Shown: positions 1,610 to 24,667, counted from the first letter of the stretch. The stretch: DNA of 28,562 nucleotides from Candidatus Melainabacteria bacterium (GCA_014380105.1 JACMKL010000106.1:1-28562), one strand, 5' to 3'. A program made the numbers and translations. The notes: a model not told the origin generated them from the sequence alone.

Positions 1610-2960
1610 TCAATCCACCTTTATAGCGTTTCTTCAAAAAATTCTGAGCCAATACCCACGATAAAACAATTAACAACGGCAAAATTGCATAGAACCAAAT
1701 TTTGTAATTCTCGACATCGATATGATGAGGATGCCCTGGATAGACAGATTTCAACTCTCCTTCTAAAGAAACGCCGGTTAGTAGATGTAGAATTTCCAAA
1801 CCTTTGATTGGTCCTACATCGTGAGTCATCATCCTGGCACCATCATAGTCATAGTCAATCTCACCAAATAGTGGATCGCCCTCTCCAAATTTTCCCGAAT
1901 CATCAGGTGTTATATATACAACCTGAAAATTCTTAACAACACGACGCAACTTACCCACAAAATTTCTTTCAAAGTCTACAGCAGCTGAGTGCTCAGGGCT
2001 GAGGTGCACAATTATCTTCAATGGCTTATTGAGCTTTAGGAGCTGCGCTTCATTCTTGGGATTGAAGGAATTGATCCTATTTTCGCTGAAATCACGAAAG
2101 TAAAAAGCATTCGATGCACAAAATGCCAAAAGAGAAATTATCAAGGCACAGATGGATGTTTCACGTAGTTTCGCCAGTAAAGACTGACCTGACCTGATCC
2201 AGATAGCGCTCAAAATCAGGAAGAATATTGACACCAAAATGAATCCCAGGGTAGTGGGCAAACTAAACATGCCATTTTCAAAAGCGCGCAGATTAGCACT
2301 TAAAGATAGCCAGCTCAAAGCTTTAAAATTTGCTTGATTCTGACCAGCGAATTCAATCACCCAGGATGTGATCGTAAACGCTAATGCCACTATGGCAGCC
2401 GTTTGAGGAGAATCTGTAATCGCGACAGCAAAAAAGGAAATTGCAATAATGGCGATGGCATAAAGTAAGTGTCCCAAAAACAAGGTTGCCACTTCAGGCA
2501 TATACAAATAGCCACCTTGTTGTGACCAAATAATCAGCGCCGAAATTACAGGAATTAAAGTCGCACCAAAAGCGAAAAGTACAACTAGTGCCTTTACAGC
2601 AATTGGCAAATACATTTGAGGACTGAGTTGCAATAAAAATTTCAATGATCCAAATTGCTTTTCAACTCCCAGAATTCGGATTGCAACAAACGGCAGAAAA
2701 AAGGTTTCGCTCAAATACAAAGCACTGCAAGTAGGCATAACAAGACCTTCTAACGGACTCAAGCTATTGAGTAAAATTTCGTCGCCGAGGGTTGTGGCGC
2801 TTGCCGCAGAATAAATGTGCGCAGCTTCAATAAAACTAAATCCAACCAGTGGAGAAAGAAATAGAAGCATTACCCAGAAAGATCGCGAAGCAAAAAGTTC
2901 TCGAATTTCCTTAGTAAAGAGTGCGAGATATTTATTGGATTGAGTAGTTTTCATAATCAT
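1596..2960 (-). CDS. ABC-2 permease (GldF-like) fused to a GldG N-terminal-like periplasmic domain
   Basis: FTKEIRELF start, about six TM helices, EKQFGSLKFLLQL loop, then DFSENRINSF..LLKLNKPLKIIVHL and a C-terminal TM helix. ATGA overlap with the ATPase stop. Confidence 0.75.
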   Translation of the reverse strand: MIMKTTQSNKYLALFTKEIRELFASRSFWVMLLFLSPLVGFSFIEAAHIYSAASATTLGDEILLNSLSPLEGLVMPTCSALYLSETFFLPFVAIRILGVEKQFGSLKFLLQLSPQMYLPIAVKALVVLFAFGATLIPVISALIIWSQQGGYLYMPEVATLFLGHLLYAIAIIAISFFAVAITDSPQTAAIVALAFTITSWVIEFAGQNQANFKALSWLSLSANLRAFENGMFSLPTTLGFILVSIFFLILSAIWIRSGQSLLAKLRETSICALIISLLAFCASNAFYFRDFSENRINSFNPKNEAQLLKLNKPLKIIVHLSPEHSAAVDFERNFVGKLRRVVKNFQVVYITPDDSGKFGEGDPLFGEIDYDYDGARMMTHDVGPIKGLEILHLLTGVSLEGELKSVYPGHPHHIDVENYKIWFYAILPLLIVLSWVLAQNFLKKRYKGGLNVGN

Positions 2961-7645: not shown

Positions 7646-8365
7646 ATGCAAAGTCTCAGCAACATTGACGATCCGGCGCCAATTCCCCTTCAAATCTCCC
7701 AAAGAGATTCAGAAGGCTGTCCTGGCTCGGGTTTCCAAGATTCACCTTTGGCGTCCGAATACGGAGCCATGGCGAGCGAATGGTCTGTGATTATTCTCAC
7801 ACTAACGGCTGTCATCCAGCTTGGCGTAGCTTCTATGTCCGGAAGTGTGGCGTTATTAGGCGATACGATACATAACTTTAGCGACGCCTTGAGCACCCTG
7901 CCTCTGTGGCTGGCATTTTACTTAGGGCGAATGCAGCCTGGCAAGCGGTTTTCGGTCGGTTCTATCAGGCTTGAGGATGCGGCAGGCGCCGTGATTGTTC
8001 TATCAATCTTAATTAGCGGACTAATGGTCGGATATCAATCCATTGACCATCTCTTCCACCCTAAAGCGGTCCATCATCTCACTGCTGTTTCCATAGCTGC
8101 ATTTATCGGCTTCATCGGAAACGAGACGGTCGCACTGTTCAGAATGAAAATAGGCAAAGAGATTGGCAGTCAGGCATTAATTGCAGACGCTTGCCACGCT
8201 CACCTGGACGGTTTTACCAGTCTTGCAGTCGCAGTTGGTTGCGTCGGCATCGCGCTCGGCTTCCCACAGGCTGATTCTATGGTCGGTTTACTGATGTCTG
8301 CTCTGACCATTTTTGCAGGCCTAGAATTGGCGCTAAAAATGCGCACACCATCTGCGGTGCGCTAA
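7646..8365 (+). CDS. Cation diffusion facilitator, transmembrane domain only
   Basis: ALLGDTIHNFSD (TM2) and ALIADACHAHLD (TM5) site-A motifs; six TM helices, then stop. The track start at 7325 overlaps rlmD, so the in-frame ATG at 7646 is preferred. Confidence 0.8.
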   Translation: MQSLSNIDDPAPIPLQISQRDSEGCPGSGFQDSPLASEYGAMASEWSVIILTLTAVIQLGVASMSGSVALLGDTIHNFSDALSTLPLWLAFYLGRMQPGKRFSVGSIRLEDAAGAVIVLSILISGLMVGYQSIDHLFHPKAVHHLTAVSIAAFIGFIGNETVALFRMKIGKEIGSQALIADACHAHLDGFTSLAVAVGCVGIALGFPQADSMVGLLMSALTIFAGLELALKMRTPSAVR

Positions 8366-8393: not shown

Positions 8394-9341
8394 TCAAGCT
8401 CTCGAGAGCAGTTTGCTATTCAAGATTGACTTATAGTCGAACACATCTAGATACTGGAATGTGTAAGCTGCAATCGCTTCTTTTTCTTCTTTGGAAAGCT
8501 CATTAGCTGTGGCAATATTGGCTTCCGGTGTAGCTTTTCGAATTGTGCCCCAGGGATAGATTTCTTCCAATTGAGAGCCATTCCATGTTGGAGTTTTCAG
8601 AGTATCTGATGATTCTAATCCCATTTTTTCGAGTACTTGACCGAGCGCCTTTTTGGAGTCGGACATTACGTCTTCAGCTCTTACAATGTGCATTCTGTCT
8701 GGATATTTTTCCTTAAACATCAAAGCATGATACTGATTGAGGGTCCAACCGAGCATGTAGTGATTCAACGAAAGCGGCACGGGGCGCTTCTTCGTATCAG
8801 CGTATGCGGACCAGGGGTTTCTCACTATGTGCAAAACATGGGAGGTCGGCAGGTCGTTCAAAATCTTATCGGAGTCAACGCCAATGATGGGGCTGTAGCC
8901 CACGTGCACGCATTCTTCGCCCGAGCGTTTGAAGTTTTTCCAAGCCTCAAAAGTTGCTTTGTAAAATGCGGCCATGTTGTTTGCGCGCGAACGCCCAGTT
9001 TTCAAAACATGCTCAACGTAGTGCTTCATGCGATCTTCGTCCGAAAAATCAAATTCCATATGTCTGAATTTGCTGACTTTCGGAGTGAGGGCGCGCACTT
9101 TGCATTCTTCGTCAATAATTGCCTTGTAGTCTTCCTGCGGTGTCGCTTCCAGGGAGAAAACCGGCCATCTGTACTTGACGGGAAACATCGACGAAAGGTG
9201 ATCGTTGACCAGGCGTGTTCCTGGCTGCGATTCAAATGGATAGACAAACAATTGCGGATGGCCGTCTAAAAAACGATGCGTCGTATTGCCACCATTTTCG
9301 TACATGGCACCAAGCATCAGTAAACGGAATTCGCCGCTCAT
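8394..9341 (-). CDS. Sulfotransferase-fold protein with non-canonical PAPS motifs
   Basis: LMLGAMYENGGNTTHRFLDGHPQL..PFE, VLHIVRNPWSAYAD and IVRAEDVMSD.K..L..V...MGL occur in Sulfotransfer_3 order and spacing. ATGA overlap with the upstream gene. Confidence 0.75.
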   Translation of the reverse strand: MSGEFRLLMLGAMYENGGNTTHRFLDGHPQLFVYPFESQPGTRLVNDHLSSMFPVKYRWPVFSLEATPQEDYKAIIDEECKVRALTPKVSKFRHMEFDFSDEDRMKHYVEHVLKTGRSRANNMAAFYKATFEAWKNFKRSGEECVHVGYSPIIGVDSDKILNDLPTSHVLHIVRNPWSAYADTKKRPVPLSLNHYMLGWTLNQYHALMFKEKYPDRMHIVRAEDVMSDSKKALGQVLEKMGLESSDTLKTPTWNGSQLEEIYPWGTIRKATPEANIATANELSKEEKEAIAAYTFQYLDVFDYKSILNSKLLSRA

Positions 9342-10642
9342 TTTTTCTTACCCCTCGTTAATAGACTAGAAGATTTACCAGAATTCGCATCAGTTGTCGA
9401 TTGAAGACGCTTCATACTTGGCTTCCCGGCGCTTAAATCGGTCTCAAATGCGTAGAAGACAAGGTTTTCATTTTTCAAGTCACGTTTCAAAGAGAAGGGC
9501 AATCCGCCGGACATCACAACTGGCATGCTTTCGACCGCAAAAATCTGATTTCCGGACGCCCAGGTGATACTGCCAAGAATACGACCGCTTTTGACATCGA
9601 CCGCATGAACGCCACAGACACTTTTCGACACATCCAGACCAGGAGCATATTGAGAGAAACGCGGAATCACGCGTGAAGTACCAATAAAGGCCACATCACC
9701 AGCAAAACACAAACCGCGCGTCCAGCCCGGCAGTTTCGCAGCGATGCTGCTCTTACCGTCTTTAATCTCACATAACTCGCCATATCCGGAGTTGTCTACA
9801 AACAATCGTTTGCCATAGAAGCGAGCTGAATGCGGTCGTGTCAGTCCTCTAACTATTGGCTCTCTGGTTTTGCCACTGAAAATTACTCCTCGACCGTCAA
9901 CTTGATAATTCGGCTCGCCTGGTCTACTTGTCGAAACAACAGCGGAAGATGCGGAGAAGTACGAATCTGCCAGAGTTTTTCCGGCAGCAATAGAATTCAT
10001 CTGGATATGGTTTTGCTCGAAAATTGGCTTGTGCTTATCTTCAATACATTTTGGCCACCAGACTCTTTCAAAGCCTTTTTCAAAATCTAGAGTAACGATG
10101 GCATTGTGTCCGACAGCATTGCCATGTAGATGACCGTCAATAAGGGCCAGGTCATGCATATAGATGCAGCCAGGCAAATAAAGTGAGCGAGTTACAACTA
10201 AATTCTTTTCGACACTCTCTGGCAGTTCTACATCTAGTCTATTCAATAGACCAGCCACCGGTCGCAATTCGAGCAGCTGATTTGGATTTCTGGTGCTTGC
10301 TACAAAAACCTTCTGATTCTGTACATCAACCGCCACCCCAGATGGATGGGGCAACGGCAAATAAGTGATGGACGGTTTTCCGGCGCTTTGACTCAGAGAA
10401 AGCAGCAAATGCTCGTATTCGCGACTGACTATTAGAGCAATTTTTTGACGTTCTAAAATATCGAAAAATGCGCCTGTCACCTTGTATTTAAGCAAAGTCG
10501 GGTCAGTGGATTCTGCATCTTTCCACATACTAGATACTTGAGCAGCGTCGCGCCACTCAGCGTTATGTCGCGCCCACAGCGCATTGAGTGCTTTACTCTG
10601 CTGATTTTTCTTAGGCTTTATTTTTTTTACAGCCGGTGGCAT
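9338..10642 (-). CDS. TIGR03032 / DUF4915 family beta-propeller protein
   Basis: MHDLAL, QMNSIA, GLTRPHSARF, DNSGYGEL, LPGWTRGL..GDVAFIGTSR, IFAV motifs; no signal peptide seen. Confidence 0.82.
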   Translation of the reverse strand: MPPAVKKIKPKKNQQSKALNALWARHNAEWRDAAQVSSMWKDAESTDPTLLKYKVTGAFFDILERQKIALIVSREYEHLLLSLSQSAGKPSITYLPLPHPSGVAVDVQNQKVFVASTRNPNQLLELRPVAGLLNRLDVELPESVEKNLVVTRSLYLPGCIYMHDLALIDGHLHGNAVGHNAIVTLDFEKGFERVWWPKCIEDKHKPIFEQNHIQMNSIAAGKTLADSYFSASSAVVSTSRPGEPNYQVDGRGVIFSGKTREPIVRGLTRPHSARFYGKRLFVDNSGYGELCEIKDGKSSIAAKLPGWTRGLCFAGDVAFIGTSRVIPRFSQYAPGLDVSKSVCGVHAVDVKSGRILGSITWASGNQIFAVESMPVVMSGGLPFSLKRDLKNENLVFYAFETDLSAGKPSMKRLQSTTDANSGKSSSLLTRGKKK

Positions 10643-11341
10643 TCAGTTTTTTGCCTCGCGCCACAGTTCATAAGCGCCCCAGTACATGCGAAAAGCAGAG
10701 CCATAATTGGTTGTGGATTTACCACCATGCCGTTTTGTTGAAAGGACGGGCACTTCAATAACAGGATAGTTTTCTCTTCGGCAAATCCAGTTAAACTCAG
10801 CATCTATGAGATCATCGTCGCGCGTGAGCTGCATCAGTTTTTCAAATTTTCTTGGAAAAACTTTTGGGGTGCCATTGATGTCCCAGGTTGGCAGGTCAAA
10901 GAAGGCCCTGCATTCCAGGTTATAGATCAGTGAGCCTAGCCGGCGGCGCCAATTATCTCGTATCTTGCGATTTGCTTTAATGACCACTTGTGGAAAAGCG
11001 ACTGCGTATAAAATATGTAAAACAAGATGCTCTGGGCTTGTGCGAGCGGAATTCGTGTAGCAGATCAAGTCACCGGTTGCTTGCTTCAATCCCAGGCGAA
11101 CTGCTAAACCCCAGCCACCCTGGGGGCTGTCGAGCGTTTTTATATAAGAAAACTTTTGCGCCAGAGCCTGACAGACGGAAGGAGAATTATCGCGACAGCC
11201 ATTGGTGACCAAAATTATTTCAAGATTTGATTGAACTTTTTCGAGCGCATTTACGTATTCACTAATAATGGGCTCGATATGATCTGCCTGATTGCACACA
11301 GGCAGAATTATCGAAATCAAATTGTCTCTGCTATTTGCCAC
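10643..11341 (-). CDS. GT2 glycosyltransferase (polyprenyl-phosphate sugar synthase-like)
   Basis: ISIILPVCNQ, EIILVTNGCRDNS, GWGLAVRLG...ATGDLI, DINGTPKVF, YPVIEVPV...RHGGKS. 232 aa with no TM helix; canonical DxD absent. Confidence 0.85.
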   Translation of the reverse strand: MANSRDNLISIILPVCNQADHIEPIISEYVNALEKVQSNLEIILVTNGCRDNSPSVCQALAQKFSYIKTLDSPQGGWGLAVRLGLKQATGDLICYTNSARTSPEHLVLHILYAVAFPQVVIKANRKIRDNWRRRLGSLIYNLECRAFFDLPTWDINGTPKVFPRKFEKLMQLTRDDDLIDAEFNWICRRENYPVIEVPVLSTKRHGGKSTTNYGSAFRMYWGAYELWREAKN

Positions 11342-11491: not shown

Positions 11492-12793
11492 ATGGCGCCA
11501 CAGATAATTCACGTCTCTGATATTCACTTCGGCTCCGGCGAGTCTCATGGTCGTGTGAATCCCATTACCGGATTGAACATACGCTTTGAAGATTTTGTCG
11601 GTGCGCTAGCCAAGGTTGTCGATTATTCAATTGAACACAAGATAGACGTCTTTCTGTTTTCAGGCGACGCTTACCGTAATGCATCACCTGAACCTGTCTA
11701 TCAAAAGATGTTTGCAAGGCAGCTCAAACGCCTTTCAGACGCTGATATCAAGACGATACTGGTGGTTGGCAATCACGACCAGATTTTGCGCTCTACGACC
11801 AGCCACGCGCTCTCGGTTTTCCAGAGTCTGGAAGTCCCGGGGGTATTGACGGTTGATGCGCCCGTTTTTCAAAGACTCGAAACCAAAAGCGGTCCGATTC
11901 AACTAATCGGTATTCCGCACTTGACCAAACATCAATTGATGACCCTGGACAAATATGCTGACAAGACCGCCAAGGAGCTCGATCGCATCCTTGTAGACCA
12001 TACGCGCCTACTGCTGGCAGGTTATTACGAAGAATTAGATCCTGAAATTCCTACGGTCGTCACTGCGCACATGACTGTCGACATAGCCACCGCCGGAATA
12101 GAAGAAGAGTTATTGATCGGCTACACCCAGACTTTTCCAACTGACATTTTTATTCACAAAAATATCGACTATGTAGCTCTTGGTCATGTGCATAAATTTC
12201 AGACTATCCGAGAAAGTTCGCCTTGCATTGTCTATTCAGGCAGCCTGGAGCGGGTAGATTTCGGCGAAGAAAGCCAGGACAAAGGCTTTGTGCACGTCAT
12301 TTTAGAACGCAACAAAACCACCTGGAAATTTGTATCTATCAAACCCAGACCATTTATCACTATTGAGGCTGATGTTACCGGATCAGAAGATCCAACCGCG
12401 CATCTAGTCAAAAAAATACAAGCCGGTGTAGAGCCAGGCTGCGTTTTGAGAGTCAGATACAAAGTCGACCAGACACAATTGCCGGATATTCGCGAAGATC
12501 TTCTGCGCAAAGCGGCTAGCGCCGCTCTATCGTCACGCTTTCTGCCTGAAATTATCGTCACTCACTCGCGCGCACGATTGCCGCAACTCAACGAAAGTAT
12601 TGTGTCATCACCAATGGTGGCACTTGATACTTATCTCGAAGAAGTAGCGCCCGAGCGCAAAGAGCGCCTGATGACCAAAGCGCGCGATATTATGAACGAA
12701 ATTTCGCTCGAGCTCACAGAAGAAAACGGCGCCGCCAAAGGGCAGAGAAGAAGAGCTAACGTCGAATCTAATGAAGAAGTGGTCGAAATTTAG
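11492..12793 (+). CDS. sbcD: SbcD/Mre11-family nuclease subunit
   Basis: HVSDIHFG, FSGDAY, VGNHD, AHMTV, LGHVH, YSGSLERVDFGEE metallophosphoesterase motifs plus C-terminal domain. Confidence 0.93.
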   Translation: MAPQIIHVSDIHFGSGESHGRVNPITGLNIRFEDFVGALAKVVDYSIEHKIDVFLFSGDAYRNASPEPVYQKMFARQLKRLSDADIKTILVVGNHDQILRSTTSHALSVFQSLEVPGVLTVDAPVFQRLETKSGPIQLIGIPHLTKHQLMTLDKYADKTAKELDRILVDHTRLLLAGYYEELDPEIPTVVTAHMTVDIATAGIEEELLIGYTQTFPTDIFIHKNIDYVALGHVHKFQTIRESSPCIVYSGSLERVDFGEESQDKGFVHVILERNKTTWKFVSIKPRPFITIEADVTGSEDPTAHLVKKIQAGVEPGCVLRVRYKVDQTQLPDIREDLLRKAASAALSSRFLPEIIVTHSRARLPQLNESIVSSPMVALDTYLEEVAPERKERLMTKARDIMNEISLELTEENGAAKGQRRRANVESNEEVVEI

Positions 12794-12794
12794 T

Positions 12795-15560
12795 CTACTT
12801 TCGAACTCGATTTTTAACCAACAAAATTCCTGCCGTTATGACTCCCAGAATCCAGAGCAGAAGAGAAATCAGAAAACTGTTTGGTTGATAAGTAAAGGCG
12901 ACGTGATGAATGCCTTTAGGAACAGCTACTGCACGAAACAAGTAATTGGCGAGCACAATTTCAGTATCTTTACCGTCAACGCGAGCGCTCCAGCCCGGAA
13001 AAAACGTATCTGTCAAAACAAGCATCGCATCAGCCGGACTATCTACATCCATTTCAATACAATTAGGCTCGTTGACTCCCAGCGTCACAGCCTTCCCACG
13101 CTCAACACTAACCAATGGCGACAATTCTTGCTGTTTCTTCCCACTCTCAAGTACAACCGTAGTTAATCCATCGAAGCCATCGGCAGACACCATATTCAGT
13201 GCCACGCTCTCGTCTCTTGCAAAAACCGAATTGAACATTAGATATGCTCGCCCCAGTGTGCGAGTATTTTCATAGACTCGAACATGTTGACGTCCAGACT
13301 CGCTAACCAGCCTGTAGTGGGAATTCACAGACTTCGTATCAGGTGACGCAAAAACAAAATCTTTCAAACAAATTATGTGCTCAGACATTTTTAGTCCGCT
13401 ACCAGAAACTGGCTTGATGAATTTCATTTTTTCGCTGTCAAAGACCTGAATGCCGACCGTAAATTTGTCACCCGCCTTCAAGGTGAGCGGAACAAGTCCT
13501 GGCATACCAACTGGCACTTCGAAGTTAACAACCTTTTTGCCGGTCGGACAACAGCCAATTAAGCCGCCATACCAGAGAGTATTGCCCGCCTGGTCCAGCA
13601 TCACGACCGAAAATACAAAGCGTTTTCTGGAATCAGCTGCAACACCAAATTTAATTGTGCCCGCAGTCTCGGCCTTACCAATGTCGTATCCGAGTGAAGC
13701 CCTCTCCAAGGTCAATTGCTCGGTCGATTCGAAGTGAATAGGTTCGGAGCCCATTTCGCATGCCTGCTCTGGGAGATTTGGATCACCGACACCTGAGACT
13801 GGTGCCAATGACAAAATGTATTTCACGCCGGCGAAATCAATCATTGGTGAGAGCGGCGTGCGATCAACGAGTGTGTTGAAAGTGTTGCGCTTAGCGCCTA
13901 GCTCCTTCATGAAAGCCTTGTATCTAGACGGCGTCATCACATTGTGAGAACCCACGCTCGGAATTTGAAAAACAAGATTTGTATTTGGACTGAGAACATC
14001 AAATCCAACTGCTAGCGCGCGCTCCTTACGGTCATGGAGGAAAGGCAGTGGCTCCTCATAGTCAAAATTGAACTTTGATTGAATCGGCAGTGAGAGCCGC
14101 CCAATTTGCGCCTGACTTACGAAACTCGCAGCCAAAATGAAAGCTATTAAAATTGGAGTTGCAATTTTTTGTTTGAAGAAAATAAAAATTGTCAGAGCCA
14201 AAGCGAGACCCACTGTCACAAACCAGAGACGTGGCGCAAACGCCATCGGGGCAACACCATTGTCAAAACTTCCAGATTTAAAATCGTAATGCAGAAGTTC
14301 CAGCGCAGGTGGGAGGAAACATGTGACTAAAAGAGCCACTACAAATAGCAGAGTAAATTTATTTTTCTGAAATGCAAAAGTTTCGACGAGATATGCGAAG
14401 CCAAATCCTGAGCCGATCAAAATAAATAGAATAAAAATTGGTATACAGTACGTCCCTGGCACATACGTGAGAGGAGACAGGTTGAGGACATCATTTAGAA
14501 AACCAGGGCGACTGACAAAAAGAAAAGCCAATATTCCTGAGATAGCCACAGGCAAATAGTAAAGACTATTTTTTCTGGCGAAAAATGCCAGAAGAAGGAA
14601 GGGGACGCCAAACACACCTGTGTACGGCGAGGCGCCAAGATAATTGGCCTGCACCAGATTTAGTACCAGAGCCTGCCAGGGCGCAACTGCGTTTTTGTCG
14701 GTTGCAAATTTATAGCAATCGGCATGAGAAAAGAACTCGCAAAAGGGCAGAATGACTGGCGCAGCAAAGCATAAAGCCAGACCGGCCACCACTGCTATCC
14801 ATTTGAAACCAGTGACGGTATTTTTAAATTTCGAACCTTTTTTTTGAGTAAAGGCGAAAATCAGGAGGCTAAACAGTGTCGCAAAGGTGATGCCAATAAA
14901 CGATGACTCCGGATGTCCTGTGCCTATAAAAATTGCACAGGAAGCAGCTGACAGCAATGCTCGCGTGATGGACGGCTTGTTGGCGAGTCTGGCAAAATTC
15001 CAGAAAATTAGCGGATACAGCGCCGAAGATGTTCCTGACAGAAGCTCCAGATAATACATATTGTAGGGACAAAACGCGTAGCCTAGAGCCACATACGCAG
15101 CGACATAACGTGGCAGTTTTATTTCACGCGCAAACAAATAACACCCGGCTGCCGCTATCATCAATTCGAAAACGAGCAAAATATTGTAGAAATGCAGTGA
15201 CGGATTGATAGCAAATAGAATTCTAAGTGGGGAGAAAACCGCTGCCTGAATATCACCCAACAACGGAACACCCCAGCCCGTGTAGGGGTTCCAGAGCGGC
15301 AATTGAAAGCTTCTCCAGTAATTTGCAACAAGATGGTAGTAAGGCATTAGGAGCAAAAACACAGACTCGTCAAAGCCACTCGCGCCGAGTGTAAAGTATT
15401 TTCTAAATAAAACATCGCGCTTGGCGAGCAAGAAAATGCGTGAGATTGGCTCAGCCAGGAAAACAGTTTTCCAAAATACAGCCACAATTAGAGCAGTAAT
15501 AAATGACACCGCTAGGGCGTCTTGCTTCTTATCTGTGAGTTTTTGCCAGCCGGAAAGCAA
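12795..15560 (-). CDS. YfhO-family GT-C membrane glycosyltransferase
   Basis: PLWNPYTGWGVPLLGDIQAAVFSPL, about 12 TM helices, and C-terminal LVLTDTFFPGWSARVDGK..I..ANYLFRAVAVPKGIHHVAFTYQP plus a final TM helix. Confidence 0.87.
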   Translation of the reverse strand: MLSGWQKLTDKKQDALAVSFITALIVAVFWKTVFLAEPISRIFLLAKRDVLFRKYFTLGASGFDESVFLLLMPYYHLVANYWRSFQLPLWNPYTGWGVPLLGDIQAAVFSPLRILFAINPSLHFYNILLVFELMIAAAGCYLFAREIKLPRYVAAYVALGYAFCPYNMYYLELLSGTSSALYPLIFWNFARLANKPSITRALLSAASCAIFIGTGHPESSFIGITFATLFSLLIFAFTQKKGSKFKNTVTGFKWIAVVAGLALCFAAPVILPFCEFFSHADCYKFATDKNAVAPWQALVLNLVQANYLGASPYTGVFGVPFLLLAFFARKNSLYYLPVAISGILAFLFVSRPGFLNDVLNLSPLTYVPGTYCIPIFILFILIGSGFGFAYLVETFAFQKNKFTLLFVVALLVTCFLPPALELLHYDFKSGSFDNGVAPMAFAPRLWFVTVGLALALTIFIFFKQKIATPILIAFILAASFVSQAQIGRLSLPIQSKFNFDYEEPLPFLHDRKERALAVGFDVLSPNTNLVFQIPSVGSHNVMTPSRYKAFMKELGAKRNTFNTLVDRTPLSPMIDFAGVKYILSLAPVSGVGDPNLPEQACEMGSEPIHFESTEQLTLERASLGYDIGKAETAGTIKFGVAADSRKRFVFSVVMLDQAGNTLWYGGLIGCCPTGKKVVNFEVPVGMPGLVPLTLKAGDKFTVGIQVFDSEKMKFIKPVSGSGLKMSEHIICLKDFVFASPDTKSVNSHYRLVSESGRQHVRVYENTRTLGRAYLMFNSVFARDESVALNMVSADGFDGLTTVVLESGKKQQELSPLVSVERGKAVTLGVNEPNCIEMDVDSPADAMLVLTDTFFPGWSARVDGKDTEIVLANYLFRAVAVPKGIHHVAFTYQPNSFLISLLLWILGVITAGILLVKNRVRK

Positions 15561-15572
15561 TAATTTACACCA

Positions 15573-17273
15573 TCAATTCTTTTGGCGATACAAGAGAATT
15601 TCACTGCCGTCGGGCACTTTTCGACGAGCAATCTCTTCGAATTTGCCACTATTTTGGACAAAATTCAGTAGTCCTTCGTTGGCAATGCGCGACTCCTCAT
15701 TTAGAAGTTTGTGCCCTGAATCACCAGTTTTCAGAAGATACCAGTGGTAGTACAACGCTGACGCTTTGCTGAAAGTGACCGTATCACCAAGCACTGTCCA
15801 GGTGCGCGAGCTGGTCGGCTTGATCAAACTGCCGGTTGCTTTGGCAATCAAGCTAAAGGTGTGGGGATTATATTCAACGTGATTTGCCATCACATTGAGC
15901 CAGAGTGGCGCTTTATGATCGCGTTTTTCAATGCTCTCCAAAACCCACGCTTGTCCCCAGTCTTGAAATGCTACTGGAGTCGATTTACCGCGCGTTTCTA
16001 CACCCATACTTGACGCTTTTGCGCCGAGCCAATCGGACAAGCCGACCATGAAAGTCGGCTGCGCAAAAGGATAAGGGAAAAAACAAAGTGAAAAATACTG
16101 CAAGACAGCTACTACAGAAACGATCACCAGGACAATTTTGCCAGGCAAGAACTTCCAATTTATGACCCGACTGAAAGCCCACCCTGTGTAGACCGCCGGA
16201 GCAATTAGAGCGCTTGCGGCATAGCGGTGATGCGGGAATTGCCACGGCAGGAGACTGATCATCACAATGCCTAAAACAGCGCTCAAGGTGACCGGTAAAA
16301 AGCGAATATGCGCTTTCTTTCCGCTGATTGCCGCACCAATCACAAAGAGGGCCATCATGAGCGGCGTCACTACATCTGGAAAAACAAACGAATAATAGCG
16401 AATGCCGCGCTGCAACGCCTGCGGAACCGAGATGGCGCCAACGGTCGAAGTAATTACCTTTTTGTTGGTTTCGGCAAATTCAGAAATAAATCCGTAGCTT
16501 GCCACTGCCCATGGCACCATCAGGATAACCGCGATCAATGCCATCGTGACAAGCTGCGCAATGCGCGTCTTTCCGCCCGATTTCAGATCCGAAAAACAGC
16601 GGGCGAAATAGAAAAGCCCAGGACCAGCCAGGAAAGCGCCTGCGACTTGCTTTGTCATTAGAATCAAGGCGAGTGCAAAACCCGTTAAAATCGCCCGTTT
16701 CCAGGTCGGCTTTTCATTCCACCAGACCATGCAGAACAATCCCACCGAAATCATGCAAGCCACCTGAAAATCAAGCAGGAATGTATGACTGAGGAAAATC
16801 AGTTCAGCATAAAAATTGACGCAGACGGAAGCCACGATTGCAGCAGTTCTGCGACCAGTGAGAAGCAACGTAGTTCCATAAACAGAAAATGTGAGCGCAA
16901 AATCATAGAGAGCAAGAGAAAGCCAATCGACCCAGCGATCCGGCCCGAAAAATATCTTTAAGAAACCGTTGAAGGCGTAAACCGCAGGCGGATAAAAATT
17001 ATTGACGGTGAGAAGCTTGGTCCACCACCAGCCCTTGAAAGGGTGCGCATGACTGAGCAAATCGGAGTAGCTGAAAGCACACAAGATGTGCCCTGCTTCA
17101 TCCATCGAAGGTTGTCGATGATCGAGCGTATGCCAAATACACAGAATGAGAGCGAAAATCAGACTAACAATTGCACCATAGACGATCGATATACGCGAAA
17201 GCTTCGCTCCGGATACGGGCTCGTTTGAGCCAGCGGGCAAATCTTTAGCTGAAATTTCGACGGCAGAATCCAC
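15573..17273 (-). CDS. ArnT/PMT-like GT-C glycosyltransferase
   Basis: First-loop PSMDEAGH, YPPAVY, FLLDFQV, LMTKQ, HHRYA; multiple TM helices and a periplasmic C-terminal domain. GTG start. Confidence 0.83.
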   Translation of the reverse strand: MDSAVEISAKDLPAGSNEPVSGAKLSRISIVYGAIVSLIFALILCIWHTLDHRQPSMDEAGHILCAFSYSDLLSHAHPFKGWWWTKLLTVNNFYPPAVYAFNGFLKIFFGPDRWVDWLSLALYDFALTFSVYGTTLLLTGRRTAAIVASVCVNFYAELIFLSHTFLLDFQVACMISVGLFCMVWWNEKPTWKRAILTGFALALILMTKQVAGAFLAGPGLFYFARCFSDLKSGGKTRIAQLVTMALIAVILMVPWAVASYGFISEFAETNKKVITSTVGAISVPQALQRGIRYYSFVFPDVVTPLMMALFVIGAAISGKKAHIRFLPVTLSAVLGIVMISLLPWQFPHHRYAASALIAPAVYTGWAFSRVINWKFLPGKIVLVIVSVVAVLQYFSLCFFPYPFAQPTFMVGLSDWLGAKASSMGVETRGKSTPVAFQDWGQAWVLESIEKRDHKAPLWLNVMANHVEYNPHTFSLIAKATGSLIKPTSSRTWTVLGDTVTFSKASALYYHWYLLKTGDSGHKLLNEESRIANEGLLNFVQNSGKFEEIARRKVPDGSEILLYRQKN

Positions 17274-17551: not shown

Positions 17552-18454
17552 TTGGAGCGGCCAGTGCTGGCAGAATATCTTTTAAAAGAATTGCCTCATA
17601 GTGAAATTCCCGATTCCGGTTTTGACGGAATCAGTGAAACGCTTCTTATTTCAATTCCGAATATCGACACAAAAGAAGGGCTTTGCCTTCTTCATCGCGG
17701 CAAACTATATAGTTTGCACATACCGTCGTGTTCCGGCTTGTGGCTGGAGGGTCAGAAACTTTATGTTTCGCTCTTGTCACCTGATCACATGCGTCTGCGC
17801 ATATATGAACCTGGCAAAACGACGAAAGAATTCTTGAACACATCCATTGGTGATATTCACGACTTGCGCATTTTCGGCGGTGAGCTGTATGCAGTCTCGA
17901 CTTCTACAAATGAAATAGTGACTTTGTCGGAAACAGGCACAATTTTGAAGCGATGGGTATTTCCAGGGATTGGCGATTCTTGGCATATCAATTGCATTGA
18001 TGTCTGGGGTGAAAAAATCGTGGTGTCCGCTTTCGGAAAATTTCCACACTTCCGTGCCTACAAAGGGCGTGTCAAGGAAGCTGGGATAGTGTTCGATATG
18101 GAAAGCCAGGAAATTTTGCAAACACACTTATCGTGCCCACATACACCCAGGTTGGACGAAGTCGGCAGAAAAATGATCTGTGATTCCAGAACCGGACGAT
18201 TGCTATTTTTTGATCAAGACAAAGGCAAAGAAGTGATGTTCGATGGTGCATTCACGAGAGGAATTGCATTCAGCGACAAACATATTTTTGTGGGCTTAAG
18301 CAGCCTGCGCCACAGAGTCGGCATCAAGCCTGGAGCTGGCACACAAGCGAGTGCAGAAATTGGCATTGTGGATTTCAAAACACTGGAATGCTTGAAAAAG
18401 GTAGCAATTCCGCGGCGTGAAATTTATGACGTCACTCTTCTTCCGAATAATTGA
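17552..18454 (+). CDS. Second DUF4915/TIGR03032-like beta-propeller protein
   Basis: DIHDLR, VSTSTNEIVTL, DSWHINCI, LSCPHTPR, DSRTGRL, FTRGIAF..HIFVGLSSLR, EIYDV. TTG start is uncertain; no signal peptide. Confidence 0.75.
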   Translation: MERPVLAEYLLKELPHSEIPDSGFDGISETLLISIPNIDTKEGLCLLHRGKLYSLHIPSCSGLWLEGQKLYVSLLSPDHMRLRIYEPGKTTKEFLNTSIGDIHDLRIFGGELYAVSTSTNEIVTLSETGTILKRWVFPGIGDSWHINCIDVWGEKIVVSAFGKFPHFRAYKGRVKEAGIVFDMESQEILQTHLSCPHTPRLDEVGRKMICDSRTGRLLFFDQDKGKEVMFDGAFTRGIAFSDKHIFVGLSSLRHRVGIKPGAGTQASAEIGIVDFKTLECLKKVAIPRREIYDVTLLPNN

Positions 18455-18471
18455 GGCTTGATTAAAGCGAC

Positions 18472-19842
18472 ATGAAAGTCTGCATGATTACATCCCATTT
18501 TCCTCCAGACTTCGGCTGGAGTGGCACTGGGCGTGCCAATTTAGAATTAGCAAATGGGCTTGCTGGCTTGGGTCACGAAGTTGAAGTAATTGCCTGTGCT
18601 GAAGACGAAACAGCGATTAACAACACCTATCAAGACGGCGTCAAAGTCTCAAGAGTGAGCTGGAAAAAGCAGCCGCGCACGGGCTTGGTGGCGCATACGA
18701 TACCACGCTCCAGATTGATGCTTAACTTGAGCGTCGCCTTGTGGAGAGAGTATCTAAAATGCGCAAAAGAGACATCATTCGATATTGTCGACGCAACTTG
18801 TAGTTATGGTGAGTCTGTCATTCCTGCCTTGACTGGCGCATCGCCTGTTCTCTCGCGCCTGTACGATAAGCGTGCTGTCTTTGTTGATAAGGAATTAGCT
18901 TTTCTGGGCGACACTGGCTTTAAATTTGAAAATGAACTCGAGAAGTTTTTCCAGAATATTGCAGTCAGCTTATCGGATGACACTGTCGCCATCAGCTCAG
19001 ACCTTTTAGCAAAGAATGACAATTCGGCAGCCGCTCACTTGATCAACTATCCGCTAGATACAGAATTGTTTTGTCCTGAAGGTGAGAAAGCTCTGGATGT
19101 GGAAGGCAAACCGTCTCTCATTATTCGCATGCCTGTTAAAAATAGTGCAGTCAGGCAAAAAGCCGTCGAGATAGTGCGTGCATTGATGGCGGAAATTCCA
19201 GATCTGGCAATTACAATTGTGGCTCCGGACCTATTCACCGAAGACAGTGAAGCGCAAATAAAAGAAGAGTTGGCTGCAGTTGGATTTGCCTCTAATATGA
19301 TTATTAGCACCGGAATGTCCAGGCTAATTTCAGCGCATCTATGGAGAAGTGCTGACTGTGCGCTACTTCTTGATTGGAAGGATGAAACACCATACGCTGC
19401 CCTTGAGGCACTAGCATGTGGTGTGCCGGTGGTGGCAGAAACGCTCCTGGATGAGCAAATCTGGTTGAAGGATAAAAGTATAATTTTAAGCCCCGAGGGT
19501 TTTTCTGCCTCCTCAGTCGCTGAAAAACTAAAATTGATGATTAGTGATTCTGCAGAAAGCAGGTCGCAGCGGCTCAAATCCAGGCAATATATTCTCGATA
19601 ATCACTGCCACAGGCAAGCTGCCAAACAATGCGTTGAATTCTATGAGAATGCAATCAAACGTTCTAGTGAAGGAAACAGTATCACTAAGCGAATCGGCGG
19701 CTTTGAGCAAGCACTGGACCTTGTCCGCAGTACGTCCGACAGACTCGATAGTTTCCTCTATGACCTGATGTTTGTTCATTCTTTCAAATTCAAAGTTTCG
19801 CACTGGGTCAAAAAATTCAATAGAAAAGCATCAAAGCGATAG
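18472..19842 (+). CDS. GT4-family (GT-B) glycosyltransferase with degenerate donor motifs
   Basis: MKVCMITSHFPP..SG......LANGLAGLGHEVEVI and ADCALL...DETPYAALEALACGVPVV. Confidence 0.85.
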   Translation: MKVCMITSHFPPDFGWSGTGRANLELANGLAGLGHEVEVIACAEDETAINNTYQDGVKVSRVSWKKQPRTGLVAHTIPRSRLMLNLSVALWREYLKCAKETSFDIVDATCSYGESVIPALTGASPVLSRLYDKRAVFVDKELAFLGDTGFKFENELEKFFQNIAVSLSDDTVAISSDLLAKNDNSAAAHLINYPLDTELFCPEGEKALDVEGKPSLIIRMPVKNSAVRQKAVEIVRALMAEIPDLAITIVAPDLFTEDSEAQIKEELAAVGFASNMIISTGMSRLISAHLWRSADCALLLDWKDETPYAALEALACGVPVVAETLLDEQIWLKDKSIILSPEGFSASSVAEKLKLMISDSAESRSQRLKSRQYILDNHCHRQAAKQCVEFYENAIKRSSEGNSITKRIGGFEQALDLVRSTSDRLDSFLYDLMFVHSFKFKVSHWVKKFNRKASKR

Positions 19843-19850: not shown

Positions 19851-22145
19851 ATGGCAAAACCTTCAACACTAATTGATATTGGCATTATTCTGCTTGTTGT
19901 TGCTCTACTTTTTGGACGCACACTGACCAGTTATTTCCTTGCTGACGATTTTGGCGAGGTGCACTATATACATCGCATCTTCAATGGTCAGCCGGGTCTA
20001 CTCTTAAGCAACTTCACCGGCAACTACATGCAAATTCCGGGTATGAGCGTGTATCGACCGTTCCTGCTTCTTTCGCTTCTGTTCGATTACATAATTTGGA
20101 AAGGTAGTGCTTTTGGCTATTATGCCTCCAACATCTTTTATTACGCAGGCGACTGCATCCTACTTTACTTTATCGTCAAACGGCTGGCACCGTCACCCGA
20201 AAGTCTCGCAAATCGCCTCACCGCATTCTTCTCCTCACTCTTTTTTGCTCTCAGCGCTCTTCACTGTGAAAGCGTCTCATGGGTTGTGGGACGGGTGGAT
20301 ACGGCATGCGGATTTTTCTATCTGTTATCGATTTTATGCATTTTAAAATCACTGACAGGCGACCGAAAGACTCTCACCATCTCAGCAATTGCTCTGTTTA
20401 TTTCAGCGCTTTTTATCAAAGAGATGGCCATCGGAATCCCTGTAGTCGCCTTTTTAATCGGGCTCTTCTATCTAAAAGAAGACGGAAACAATTTCGACCT
20501 GAAGCGGAAATTCAAAGGTGCTTTCACTTTCTCGCTGCCTTATTTGGCAGCGACTTGCGTGTACTTCTTGCTTCGCTACCTCACGCTCGGCACACTAGTG
20601 GGCGGCTATGTAGCGGGCTTTGGTGCCAGCCAGGAACAAAATCTCCTGGCACGCTGGCTTGACGTAGACACAATGCGCAGAATTGCATATCCACTCGTAA
20701 ACGGACATTTCGCTGGTGCTGCGCAAATAGCAAATGTTCTGACAATTTTCTATGTGGCGACAACCACCCTGTTTGCAGTGCGCCTCTTCAGTGGGCAAAT
20801 ACCATTTCGTTTCACTGCCTTCTTGATTGGCTGGTCGTTAACCACGCTTGTGCCCATTTACAAACTCTGGGGGCTTGGCTATCACCTGGAAGGCGCACGC
20901 TTCCTGTTCTTTTTCACGATGCCACTTTCCTGCATTTTGGCAAGTATGCTATTCCAATCAAAAGAGAAAGAAATAAAGTCAACATATTATTCTGGACCGC
21001 GGCTGGTGGCATGGGTAGTGGCAATCCTTTTTGCTGGAATCTCCGCATATATTTGCCAGAAGACAAATCTGATCTGGATACATGCAGGCAAACAGGTGAA
21101 GGCCGTCAACGCACAGTCTATCAAGATATTGAATGAACAAGCCAATAATCAGACAGTATTTCTAGGCATTCCGAAAGAGTCAGAAGGCACACATATGCTC
21201 CTGAATGGTGACACTTTTCGCACGATGTTGAATCCGCCTTTCAACAATAAAGAAGTGAAATCTACGTTCTCAACCTTTGAGCCAATTATGTACTCGCCGA
21301 CTCCGGAAATAGACACCAACCGGCTTCAGAAGCTGGTGTCCAATGGTGCTTCCTTCTATGTGTGGTCCGACGCAACTCACTTTGTCCCCGTTAAATTTAT
21401 AAGCGCCCAATCATCATCCTCCCCTTCTTCAAAGCAATTCGAGCCTGAAGAATTACAGAGGCAGGGTAGTGAAATCACTATCAACAATCAGTCTATTAAT
21501 CCATTAACAACTGACTTTCTGACAATCAATCTGGAAGCGCAGGAGCCAGCAGATGGGGCTTACGTGGGCGTTTCGTGGGGTAGTCCGAATTTCCCACTCA
21601 AAAAGGACATGACTGCCGAACCAATGCTCAAGGTAAAACTAAAGTCCGACAAGACTAACTCGCAAAAACTTATCCATATTCCACTGTCGAGAGACTGGAG
21701 ATGGTTTCGTGATGGAGAAGTAAACAATTTCAATATCGTTCTGCCTGCCGCACAAAAGCTAAAACTACACTCTGTTGAAATTTCCGACCAGGCGAAAATC
21801 TCTCCTACAATCGATTTGACGCAGCTGACTTGCTCTGAGAATGGGGTCTATCCACTGAAGGCTACCGAAACCAATCTTGCCGCCGACGCCGGGCAAATTC
21901 CGGGCGCTACGGGTCTGTTGATTGAAATAACAAAACCGAATTTCTTCTTTGAGAATTTCCGCGAATCAAACGGTGAAGACGCAGTCGGATCGCGCTTTCC
22001 GGTCAAAAACACGAAGACCGATTTTCGCCTGAAACGCATTCTATTTAGAGGCAAAGGATATTATCAGGTGCGCGTTCGGGCTGTAAACGACAGGGGTGAA
22101 ACAGTCGGCGAACCGTCATGTCGCCTCAGTCTTCAGGTCGAGTGA
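19851..22145 (+). CDS. GT-C membrane glycosyltransferase (TMTC-like core) with large periplasmic C-terminal region
   Basis: YFLADDF, YRPF..LSLLFDY, LHCESVSWVVGRVD, LFIKEMAI, WGLGYHLEGARF; ends in YYQVRVRAVNDRG (FN3-like strand). Confidence 0.78.
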   Translation: MAKPSTLIDIGIILLVVALLFGRTLTSYFLADDFGEVHYIHRIFNGQPGLLLSNFTGNYMQIPGMSVYRPFLLLSLLFDYIIWKGSAFGYYASNIFYYAGDCILLYFIVKRLAPSPESLANRLTAFFSSLFFALSALHCESVSWVVGRVDTACGFFYLLSILCILKSLTGDRKTLTISAIALFISALFIKEMAIGIPVVAFLIGLFYLKEDGNNFDLKRKFKGAFTFSLPYLAATCVYFLLRYLTLGTLVGGYVAGFGASQEQNLLARWLDVDTMRRIAYPLVNGHFAGAAQIANVLTIFYVATTTLFAVRLFSGQIPFRFTAFLIGWSLTTLVPIYKLWGLGYHLEGARFLFFFTMPLSCILASMLFQSKEKEIKSTYYSGPRLVAWVVAILFAGISAYICQKTNLIWIHAGKQVKAVNAQSIKILNEQANNQTVFLGIPKESEGTHMLLNGDTFRTMLNPPFNNKEVKSTFSTFEPIMYSPTPEIDTNRLQKLVSNGASFYVWSDATHFVPVKFISAQSSSSPSSKQFEPEELQRQGSEITINNQSINPLTTDFLTINLEAQEPADGAYVGVSWGSPNFPLKKDMTAEPMLKVKLKSDKTNSQKLIHIPLSRDWRWFRDGEVNNFNIVLPAAQKLKLHSVEISDQAKISPTIDLTQLTCSENGVYPLKATETNLAADAGQIPGATGLLIEITKPNFFFENFRESNGEDAVGSRFPVKNTKTDFRLKRILFRGKGYYQVRVRAVNDRGETVGEPSCRLSLQVE

Positions 22146-22872: not shown

Positions 22873-22891
22873 CAATAAATAACTAACCGAC

Positions 22892-23668: not shown

Positions 23669-23674
23669 AAAATC

Positions 23675-24544: not shown

Positions 24545-24667
24545 CGGCTTCCCAAGGAGACGGCGCACAAAGCGCTTTCAGTTCCCAAGATGTTATCACG
24601 ACAAGCAGTCCTGCTCCAGAAACAGATTCTTATCTGTAATATGGATGCACGGTTGACAAGCGTCGGA

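Follow-up and report, generated by a model that had tools for sequence, protein, structure and literature searches.

Three neighbouring genes in the window, i.e., the whole 28,562-nt stretch of Candidatus Melainabacteria DNA that was analysed (GCA_014380105.1), encode a GT2 glycosyltransferase, a DUF4915 propeller protein and a sulfotransferase-fold (ST-fold) protein. They were described in the first-pass annotation as a three-gene system, but are actually one half of a conserved six-gene cassette, the other half of which consists of a split transketolase (TktN and TktC) and an SDR. The most likely role of the triple would be the synthesis of a two-carbon-modified sugar and its hand-over to neighbouring membrane glycosyltransferases. 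That the triple forms the "hand-over" half of a sugar-tailoring cassette, with a product meant for an envelope glycan, appears somewhat more probable than all other readings together.

The transketolase of the cassette is a ThDP enzyme whose ThDP motif reads SDA in place of GDG; the SDR is of the extended, nucleotide-sugar dehydratase/epimerase type. The genes for GT2, DUF4915 and ST-fold protein were found together in 72 of 80 fetched loci, and cassette loci came from about 12 bacterial phyla, in agreement with the expectation that the three genes co-occur elsewhere. All six genes were present in 45 of the 80 loci, 41 times in the order TktN-TktC-GT2-DUF4915-ST-SDR and four times in cyclic permutations; loci L042-L049 contained the triple only. 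In the genome of the window, TktN, TktC and the SDR are encoded on a separate contig (C504), with identities of 58%, 52% or similar to Chloroflexia copies, and the genome has the full set of six genes, each of them intact, in two operons. Three congeneric genomes (G006, G010, G011) carry both halves on a single contig, separated by 190-217 kb, while the halves are adjacent in other genera of the same family; the cassette is thus split in this genus of Obscuribacterales (Melainabacteria). This natural split indicates the working units, namely transketolase plus SDR versus GT2 plus DUF4915 plus ST-fold protein. Among 41 related genomes, an ST-fold gene and a cassette-type TktN occurred together in 16 and alone in 3, and 22 had neither.

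The positions of the features are compiled in Table 1. The three coupled ORFs with their TGA-ATG and ATGA junctions were found exactly where the first-pass annotation had placed them, and all the odd motifs which it had named (NSA in the GT2, QxN in the propeller, acidic PAPS positions in the ST-fold protein) were present. For the GT2, GTG at 11341 or TTG at 11320 is possible as start codon. Scans of the region for promoters and terminators gave counts not above those of shuffled sequences; since such sites are no commoner here than in shuffles, the hairpin beyond the ST-fold gene is a possible, although weak, candidate for the end of the operon.

Table 1. Positions of the three-gene operon and of the surrounding glycan locus in the window.
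Feature	Position	Strand	Remarks
GT2 ORF	10643-11341	minus	232 aa; Pfam Glycos_transf_2 match
Cassette-type DUF4915 ORF	9338-10642	minus	434 aa; Pfam DUF4915 match
ST-fold ORF	8394-9341	minus	315 aa; Pfam Sulfotransfer_3 match
GT2/DUF4915 junction, TGA-ATG, 0-nt spacing	10640-10645	minus	reads AAC TGA ATG CCA
DUF4915 stop/ST start overlap, ATGA	9338-9341	minus	reads AAA AAA TGA GCG
Terminator-like hairpin and T-run	8343-8362	minus	32 nt beyond ST stop codon
YfhO-like polytopic GT-C-type protein	12795-15560	minus	921 aa; YfhO PF09586, 37.7 bits (cut-off 28.5)
PMT-like polytopic GT-C-type protein	15573-17273	minus	566 aa; PMT PF02366, 34.7 bits (cut-off 22.7)
Paralogous short DUF4915 (H-x-N type) and, directly after, GT4 glycosyltransferase	17552-19842	plus	DUF4915 300 aa; pair kept in genus
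Polytopic protein (+), methyltransferase (-), Wzt and Wzm ABC exporter genes (-)	19851-24568	mixed	polytopic protein 764 aa; glycan locus

Comparison of the three ORFs with their orthologues gave pN values of 0.11-0.25 and pS values of about 0.8 (0.73-0.95, saturated); both are given instead of dN/dS, which is not computable with saturated synonymous sites. In about 70 orthologues, which represent about 12 phyla, the odd motifs were nearly invariant, i.e., the non-canonical residues were kept and not replaced by canonical ones. The three ORFs are under strong purifying selection and their non-canonical motifs are fixed. Degenerate copies do occur, one relative (G013) having a copy full of stops and two loci (L078 and L103) frameshifted GT2 genes, and these could be taken to mean that the triple is a remnant of a decaying glycan operon, with motif changes that reflect loss of function. 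The probability of such decay is negligible for the triple of the window, since it is refuted by the pN and pS values and by the identity of the motifs across phyla, besides the three open reading frames. The preference of the first-pass annotation for a dedicated pathway therefore stands, and the ORFs are functional and co-selected, with open frames, the same motifs in orthologues, co-occurrence in 72 of 80 loci and pN far below the saturated pS; its assumption of "parallel changes" in three enzymes has to be given up, since each motif is an ancient signature of its own subfamily.

The GT2 reached 49 bits with Pfam PF00535 (Glycos_transf_2; cut-off 23.3) and 35.5 bits with NF007986 (cut-off 529), which is below equivalog level. 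A PDB search showed ArnC (9hwj, 9bhc, 8vxh), DPMS (5mlz) and GtrB (5ekp) as closest solved relatives. As judged from its sequence, it is a short soluble glycosyltransferase of the polyprenyl-phosphate type, similar to ArnC, DPM1 and GtrB, without the donor-binding aspartates. In HMMER alignments N97-S98-A99 stands opposite D-A-D of ArnC 9hwj, the DxD motif thus being absent, and T46-N47 opposite the D-D of "DDGS" in ArnC and 3bcv, so that the GT2 lacks these aspartates too. The sequence CYTNSART was found in 58 of 74 orthologues, none of which had an acidic residue in the NSA motif, and a 25-row alignment spanning phyla showed N47, N97, A99, R100, T101 and D154 to be invariant. D154 and the equally invariant K160 align with D and R of "GDYGCMLR" in ArnC; we take an aspartate of the D154 type to be the catalytic base. 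The protein stops at residue 232 and has no C-terminal TM helices, whereas the GT2s of variant cassettes run about 80 hydrophobic residues past the equivalent point. Some loci (L111, L112, L114) contain the short GT2 together with a canonical full-length polyprenyl-phosphate GT2, which weakens the claim that the short GT2 loads the lipid carrier. The short GT2 could be a non-catalytic subunit, since every donor- or metal-binding Asp of its relatives is missing and the membrane anchor is absent. Metal-independent GT-A glycosyltransferases exist, e.g., GT14 C2GnT-L and the bacterial GT6 enzymes with NxN; as in the GT2, their DxD is exchanged for uncharged residues, and the adjacent invariant basic residue R100 is counted as a further likeness, although these enzymes belong to other GT families and the likeness is by analogy only.

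The ST-fold protein was recognized by Sulfotransfer_3 (PF13469) with 31.4 bits (cut-off 27), in a match which spans profile positions 49-215 only, so that its N-terminal PAPS loop is unmatched. Its sequence gave no match in the PDB at E<=1; with the AF2 model (pLDDT 94.4), all of the 22 Foldseek matches at E<=0.001 were sulfotransferases, at the top CurM ST (4gbm), olefin synthase (OLS) ST (4gox) and TPST2 (3ap1), with TM values of 0.55-0.63. A canonical sulfotransferase with the motifs RSGST and REP..S, which is encoded on contig C709 of the same genome, was used as reference for alignment. By MAFFT and hhalign, E15 (in YENGGNTT) was found at the 5'-PSB Arg position of that enzyme, in a loop that canonically has Lys/Arg and Ser/Thr, and D182, conserved to at least 90% within the family, at its 3'-PB Ser position, eight residues after the Arg of that motif; of the 3'-PB residues, R174 and P176 are retained. 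The register is that of three concordant weak alignments and the fold, an hhalign comparison of the family profile with the C709 enzyme alone having given the expected N-terminal register with a probability of 2.9%. The acidic residues reported at both PAPS-binding sites are family-wide, Glu and Asp occupying the two PAPS-phosphate positions across 517 clusters. The entire family differs in this respect from CurM ST, olefin synthase ST and TPST2, its best fold matches, which have Lys/Arg at the 5'-PSB and Ser at the 3'-PB position and have Arg and Pro in the 3'-PB motif in common with it.

In five cassette genomes (G016, G017, G021, G042, G045), searches for APS kinase, ATP sulfurylase and CysD (PF01583, PF01747, TIGR02039) gave no hit. 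Genes may be absent from MAGs because these are incomplete; one of the five (G042) is a closed chromosome. All five have an intact ST-fold gene, which thus persists where sulfate activation was not detected; a PAPS-dependent sulfotransferase would be expected to have a PAPS supply in every genome that keeps it. The genome of the window does possess sulfate-activation genes, and CysD and CysNC are located about 21 kb from the cassette in its genus, so that sulfation could take place somewhere in the wider locus. A function of the ST-fold protein as PAPS or APS sulfotransferase is very unlikely, considering the family-wide Glu and Asp and the five cassette genomes without detectable sulfate activation; the non-standard donor suggested in the first-pass annotation is thereby supported more strongly than when it was proposed. 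There is accordingly a rather small chance of true sulfation of the cassette sugar, in which PAPS or APS would be used non-canonically, e.g., metal-bridged via E15 and D182. The fold, with a PAPS enzyme as every structural neighbour, the gathering score passed, the retained R174 and P176 and the nearby CysD and CysNC are consistent with it, whereas the carboxylates at both phosphate-contacting positions, the PAPS loop outside the profile match, the intact gene in the five genomes and the separate canonical sulfotransferase of the window genome argue against it.

The ST-fold protein is about 70% identical between phyla, and relatives with 28-41% identity still accompany split transketolase, SDR and GT2. 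The identity between phyla is extreme and typical of proteins with many interaction surfaces; together with the lack of textbook catalytic or cofactor ligands in GT2 and ST-fold protein and the extra canonical GT2 in some loci, it would suit a pseudoenzyme scaffold, in which one or both proteins are non-catalytic and act as structural or channelling subunits around transketolase and SDR or around a membrane glycosyltransferase. We regard this as unlikely, since the substitutions (Asn, Arg, Glu, Asp) show no relaxation, being specific and invariant, and the GT2 retains its aligned base Asp. A three-chain complex prediction (GT2, ST-fold protein and DUF4915, with their own alignments) had a score of 0.00, which lends the scaffold no support and speaks neither for nor against binding.

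The propeller protein matched Pfam DUF4915 (PF16261) with 184 bits (cut-off 35) and TIGR03032 with 128.4 bits (cut-off 251.5); since the latter score is under the equivalog cut-off, the protein is a DUF4915 member, and not a TIGR03032 equivalog as had been annotated. It is predicted to contain an N-terminal helical segment and a six-bladed beta-propeller (AF2 pLDDT 84). Residues H163, D164, N180, N216, P270, H271 and S285 are invariant in the family, and Q214-x-N216 is the signature of the cassette subfamily; the same alignment columns are occupied by H-x-N, as noted before, in the second DUF4915 protein (window positions 17552-18454) and also in a third one (contig C803). The sequence gave no match in the PDB at E<=1. 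Foldseek of the model against PDB and Swiss-Prot AFDB yielded generic six-bladed propellers only (YWTD/LRP, nidogen, strictosidine-synthase-like), with TM of about 0.45, and assignment of a function from them was dropped. Neighbours by language-model features were NHL, Str_synth and SGL clusters, with scores of at most 0.90, which are leads only. The model appears to have the six-bladed fold in common with the SGL/strictosidine-synthase/NHL clan, although TM is below 0.5 and there is no match at the sequence level; the residue set H/D/N/N/H/S is peculiar to DUF4915. Literature searches with DUF4915, TIGR03032 and PF16261 returned nothing relevant, and no DUF4915 member was present in the searchable literature.

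The two GT-C-type proteins of the locus (12795-17273) might be the enzymes that use a lipid-linked sugar. Polytopic proteins, of the GT-C type or other, lie beside the cassette in the window and at 52 of the 80 loci; the 764-aa polytopic protein of the window belongs to no Pfam family. When ten large membrane neighbours from other phyla were scanned with Pfam, eight matched no GT-C family, and the other two matched MMPL and Acyl_transf_3. Since most of them are without a Pfam family, the label GT-C is a guess for these proteins, and the notion of a cassette always next to GT-C was dropped. No GtrA, ArnE/F or LPG_synthase_TM flippase was detected among the window ORFs scanned, which covered those of less than 80 aa in part; a LPG_synthase_TM flippase-like gene is situated beside the cassette in 7 other loci. 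The neighbourhood bears also on the question whether the cassette could provide the sugar moiety of a diffusible small molecule instead of an envelope glycan, for which a slim chance is left: split-gene transketolases have been suggested to branch keto sugars in the miharamycin and amipurimycin clusters (PMC12247030), and a PP-binding carrier protein and an Antibiotic_NAT gene are encoded close to one variant locus (L128). Against this, the cassette is accompanied in the window and in most loci by Wzm/Wzt, GT4, GT-C-type and further polytopic proteins, the window is without PKS or NRPS, and the flanks of the cassette, which occurs in about 12 phyla, are variable and of glycan type.

A lead to the substrate came from variant cassettes, which possess, instead of the short GT2, a PgfS/ArnC-like GT2 of full length that has a hydrophobic tail, and an APH-type kinase in place of the DUF4915 propeller. 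CDP-glucose synthase (TIGR02623) and CDP-glucose 4,6-dehydratase (TIGR02622) scored above their cut-offs inside such cassettes, for which reason we infer CDP-glucose to be the best candidate substrate. RfbF adjoins variant split transketolases and was present in 8 of 8 cassette genomes with at least 90% completeness; it was not found in the window genome (78% complete). Since it is common also in genomes without the cassette, CDP-glucose synthase was rejected as a cassette-specific marker. Literature searches on transketolase with O-antigen or branched-sugar terms returned nothing relevant.

In the preferred pathway to an envelope glycan, SDR and transketolase would convert a nucleotide sugar to a two-carbon-branched or chain-extended sugar. 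The GT2 would transfer this sugar metal-independently, most likely onto polyprenyl phosphate, with Asn, Ser, Ala and Arg where its relatives use Asp for metal or nucleotide, and with the aligned base Asp kept. Propeller and ST-fold protein would tailor the sugar by a chemistry other than sulfation, the ST-fold protein probably binding a nucleotide whose 3'-OH is free. Polytopic GT-C-type enzymes encoded in the locus could then draw on the product for the decoration of an envelope glycan, and Wzm/Wzt would export the glycan. A more specific version, doubtful but worth considering, is an undescribed class of envelope sugar: the transketolase would add a hydroxyacetyl group to a CDP-keto-hexose, DUF4915 and an ST-fold enzyme switched from PAPS to a free-3'-OH nucleotide (for non-sulfate group transfer or elimination) would process the product, and a metal-independent, Asp-less GT2 would deliver it. 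Synthesis and delivery would then each be a new route, with new chemistry in both processing families. If this version were true, DUF4915 and the ST-fold family of 517 clusters would both receive a first function from one pathway.

If the general reading is correct, the cassette would be a mobile module for an undescribed sugar common to about a dozen phyla, including Melainabacteria, Cyanobacteria, Chloroflexota, Acidobacteriota, Actinomycetota and Planctomycetota. A first functional context would be available for DUF4915, a whole clade labelled "sulfotransferase" would need re-annotation, and a GT2 would be seen to work without any canonical aspartate. Also, a role of transketolases in glycan tailoring, hitherto proposed only for antibiotic pathways, would be demonstrated.

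Among known systems, the Arn, Gtr and Pgf pathways (ArnA/ArnC/ArnT; GtrA/GtrB/GtrC; PgfS) share with the cassette relatives of the GT2, a nucleotide-sugar SDR and adjacent GT-C-type enzymes, and the PgfS/ArnC-like full-length GT2 of variant cassettes is a further likeness to Arn and Pgf. The cassette GT2, with 232 aa, differs from theirs by the lack of TM helices and of the DxD and DD aspartates; a flippase of the GtrA/ArnEF type was not seen in the window, and transketolase, DUF4915 and ST-fold protein have no counterpart in these systems. The miharamycin and amipurimycin systems have a ThDP enzyme beside a nucleotide-sugar SDR, as does the cassette, the role of their split transketolases being a proposal (PMC12247030) and not an assayed activity. 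The same arrangement is found in the yersiniose system, and the entry steps of the CDP-dideoxyhexose/yersiniose route are the same as those of the CDP-glucose enzymes in variant cassettes. YerE and YerF represent ThDP-dependent branching in CDP-yersiniose A; YerE is of the acetolactate-synthase type, whereas the cassette enzyme is of the transketolase type, split, and carries SDA for GDG.

The genes for GT2, the DUF4915 propeller and the sulfotransferase-fold (ST-fold) protein, here called the triple, belong to a six-gene cassette. In contigs from Chloroflexia and Blastocatellia the order is TktN and TktC (a split transketolase), GT2, DUF4915, ST and SDR. Among 80 loci, taken from species-representative genomes by means of an alignment of the ST-fold protein, the triple was found in 72 and the full set in 45; the order was canonical in 41 of these 45 and cyclically permuted in four, and most loci short of the full set end at contig boundaries. 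Clustering of flanking open reading frames yielded these six families as the only recurrent ones; the flanks are variable (Wzm/Wzt, GT4, many unannotated polytopic proteins), with an LPG_synthase_TM flippase-like protein in seven loci. The dedicated system proposed in the first-pass annotation is a live pathway, with six genes and not three. Leptothermofonsia sichuanensis E412 and the organisms of CP039740.1 and CP028461.1 are cultivable examples among the carriers. No paper mentioning DUF4915 or the six-gene cassette was found in a literature search. In some cassettes of Acidobacteriota (Blastocatellia, Pyrinomonadaceae) and in one locus from Anaerolineae, DUF4915 and the ST-fold gene are separated by a large polytopic membrane protein, 660–1216 aa long and with as many as about 23 hydrophobic segments; four of these proteins (all but that of locus L083) were scanned and gave no Pfam family.

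The DUF4915 tree intermixes phyla (21 label changes versus a minimum of 11, with Heliomicrobium, for example, nested within Blastocatellia), which is consistent with horizontal spread, although the taxonomic labels of some MAGs are unreliable. Labels from SMAG records (Planktothrix, Drouetiella, Oculatellaceae) for loci L085 (genome G018), L057, L061 and L065 look unreliable, since G018 was placed by genome taxonomy in the window's own Melainabacteria family.

In the window, GT2 and DUF4915 are joined by TGA ATG, the start directly following the stop, and the DUF4915 stop overlaps the ST start in ATGA; the reading frames previously assigned within 8394–11341 were exact, and the motifs described for them were confirmed. 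With 128 bits against TIGR03032, below the cut-off of 251.5, the propeller is, judged from profile scores, a member of DUF4915 and not a TIGR03032 equivalog. The ST-fold protein covers only positions 49–215 of the Sulfotransfer_3 profile in the Pfam scan; the profile thus leaves its N-terminal PAPS loop unmatched. A glycan locus makes up the remainder of the window and encodes YfhO-like and PMT-like GT-C-type proteins, a shorter second DUF4915 followed by GT4, a methyltransferase, Wzm, Wzt and two large polytopic proteins, homologues of which come after a complete cassette in another Obscuribacterales genome (locus L054). A divergent gene for an SbcD-type nuclease is wedged between the triple and the GT-C genes, an arrangement kept in the genus.

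Coordinates of the features discussed (L, fetched loci; G, genomes; C, contigs)
Feature	Location	Strand	Remarks
GT2, 232 aa	window 10643-11341	minus	PF00535, 49 bits
DUF4915 protein, 434 aa	window 9338-10642	minus	PF16261, 184 bits
ST-fold protein, 315 aa	window 8394-9341	minus	Sulfotransfer_3, 31.4 bits (cut-off 27)
SbcD-type nuclease	window 11492-12793	plus	
Short DUF4915 paralogue, 300 aa, then GT4	window 17552-19842	plus	H-x-N type
Polytopic protein, 764 aa	window 19851-22145	plus	about 7-8 hydrophobic segments; no Pfam family
Polytopic protein, 712 aa	window 26281-28419	minus	about 7-8 hydrophobic segments; no Pfam family
TktN	window's genome, contig C504 (L040) 1858-2682		
Third DUF4915	window's genome, contig C803 (L041:1671-2615)		between YfhO-like protein and two GT4 genes
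Putative glycan island of the genus	G010:C13 330-362 kb; G006:C10 352-388 kb; G011:C5 477-509 kb		
Decayed cassette	G013:C1:438000-451000 (L024)		same family
APH-family kinase	CP028461.1 (L128:7944-8831)		
Inserted polytopic protein	L060:6751-8931; L076:5226-8873; L083:5211-8858; L088:6948-8939; L100:6727-8991		
Second Asp-less GT2	L074, L075, L099, L103, L106, L107, L116		Solirubrobacterales

The other cassette genes of the window's genome, TktN-TktC-SDR, form an operon of their own on contig C504. Three well-assembled genomes of this genus have both halves on one contig at a distance of 190–217 kb, and in six other genera of the family they are adjacent; a bare triple with ample flank was found only in this genus (loci L042–L049). 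Of 41 related genomes, 16 contain both the ST-fold gene and a cassette-type TktN, 22 contain neither, and three, all of them incomplete MAGs, contain only one of the two. The split resembles a natural experiment, with transketolase and SDR as one unit and GT2, DUF4915 and ST as the other. RfbF, CysD, a CysN/C-type APS kinase and the triple lie within about 31–35 kb of each other in this genus; their proximity suggests a large glycan island, which may include true sulfation by another enzyme.

The triple is not decaying. It is syntenic across nine genera of the same family with all motifs retained, and in comparison with seven relatives the non-synonymous differences amounted to 0.11–0.25 per site (up to 0.35 in the propeller), while synonymous sites were saturated (pS 0.73–0.95). 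Across about 12 phyla, AMYENGGNTTH of the ST-fold protein was present in 74 of 78 orthologues, VRNPWSAYADTKKRP in 69 of 78, CYTNSART in 58 of 74 GT2 orthologues and QLNSIA in all 67. Conserved motifs, synteny and low non-synonymous change thus bear out the earlier preference for a live, dedicated pathway over decay. GT2 genes are frameshifted in two loci, in contrast to the open frames of the window. A whole cassette in a decayed state was observed in genome G013 of the same family, where the ST gene is fragmented with six internal stops and GT2 is frameshifted, with TktN still open.

The AF2 model of the ST-fold protein is confident (pLDDT 94.4), and every significant structural match is a sulfotransferase, the best PDB matches being the olefin-synthase and CurM sulfotransferase domains and TPST2 (TM 0.55–0.63). 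A canonical sulfotransferase with RSGST and REP......S motifs is encoded on contig C709 of the same genome; in concordant MAFFT and hhalign alignments, E15 stands opposite its Arg and D182 opposite its Ser, and R174 is kept. Only 517 relatives came out of a HMMER search run exhaustively on 1.84 billion cluster representatives. Down to 24% identity, all full-length ones have [ED]-x-G-G-[GN], whose acidic residue corresponds to E15, and Asp in the place of D182, which marks these residues as an old signature of the family. The idea of parallel changes in three enzymes must be given up. Split transketolase, SDR and GT2 also accompany relatives at 28–41% identity, and in one variant cassette an APH-type kinase substitutes for DUF4915; in the variant cassette at locus L128 the ST-fold gene has its end overlapped by an APH-family kinase gene in the usual DUF4915 position, and genes for PP-binding and Antibiotic_NAT proteins are nearby.

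CysD and a CysN/C-type APS kinase are present in the window's genus. In a census with genome G041 as positive control, no APS kinase, ATP sulfurylase or CysD was found in five cassette-bearing genomes, G016, G017, G021 (96%, 95% and 92% complete, respectively), G045 and G042, the last of which was deposited as a single chromosome of 6.7 Mb. Their ST-fold genes are intact, and both motifs are unchanged in four; in G045 the first reads YENGGNMT. Because of the family-wide acidic positions and these intact genes, use of PAPS or APS by the ST-fold family is very unlikely, and the non-standard donor postulated in the first-pass annotation gains support. Given Asp at the 3'-phosphate position, the ligand may be a nucleotide whose 3'-OH is free, by analogy with the discrimination between NAD and NADP.

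The AF2 model of the DUF4915 protein (pLDDT 84) shows an N-terminal helical segment and then a six-bladed propeller, whose neighbours by structure and by features are generic (YWTD, NHL, strictosidine-synthase-like and SGL proteins). Q214-x-N216 of the cassette type is replaced by H-x-N at the same columns in the window's second copy and in the third copy on contig C803. H163, D164, N180, N216, H271 and S285 are invariant in cassette and paralogue types and look like a catalytic or metal site. The DUF4915-GT4 pair in the window is conserved in the genus; since the paralogues are paired with GT4 both here and on C803, DUF4915 looks like a recurrent partner of glycosyltransferases.

Among solved structures, GT2 is nearest to those of the polyprenyl-phosphate glycosyltransferases ArnC, DPMS and GtrB. 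In the HMMER alignment, T46-N47 stand opposite D-D of the ArnC 'DDGS', N97-S98-A99 opposite D-A-D, and the 'GDYGCMLR' loop has its D matched by D154 and its R by K160. All three donor- and metal-binding aspartates are replaced (N47, N97, A99); R100 beside them is invariant and D154 is retained. The most economical reading of these alignments would be a metal-independent transferase. GT2 could conceivably be a non-catalytic subunit instead, for which the presence of a canonical full-length GT2 alongside the short one in some Planctomycetota and Armatimonadota loci would speak. The window GT2 consists of the catalytic domain only; the GT2 in the same place in variant cassettes is full-length, PgfS/ArnC-like and has a hydrophobic C-terminal tail. 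In Solirubrobacterales, a paralogue with the N-x-x-R-T signature in common lies beside the cassette; this second Asp-less GT2, encoded on the other strand immediately beyond the cassette, is 38–45% identical, reads Y-[TA]-N-[WY]-x-R-T and is devoid of the C-terminal RHGGKSTTN motif.

As a lead to the substrate, variant cassettes contain TIGR02623 glucose-1-phosphate cytidylyltransferases (413 and 428 bits, cut-off 300) and, in one case, a TIGR02622 CDP-glucose 4,6-dehydratase (449 bits, cut-off 278). RfbF directly adjoins the variant split transketolases in genomes G018, G035 and G037 and occurs in all eight cassette-bearing relatives which are at least 90% complete; it is also common among genomes without the cassette, and was not found in the window's genome, which is 78% complete. 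The ThDP/metal motif of TktN is S-D-A-E in 53 of 53 orthologues, as against G-D-G-E of transketolases, with the Asp kept. The closest solved match of the cassette transketolase is the split enzyme of Carboxydothermus. [quoted passage not shown]
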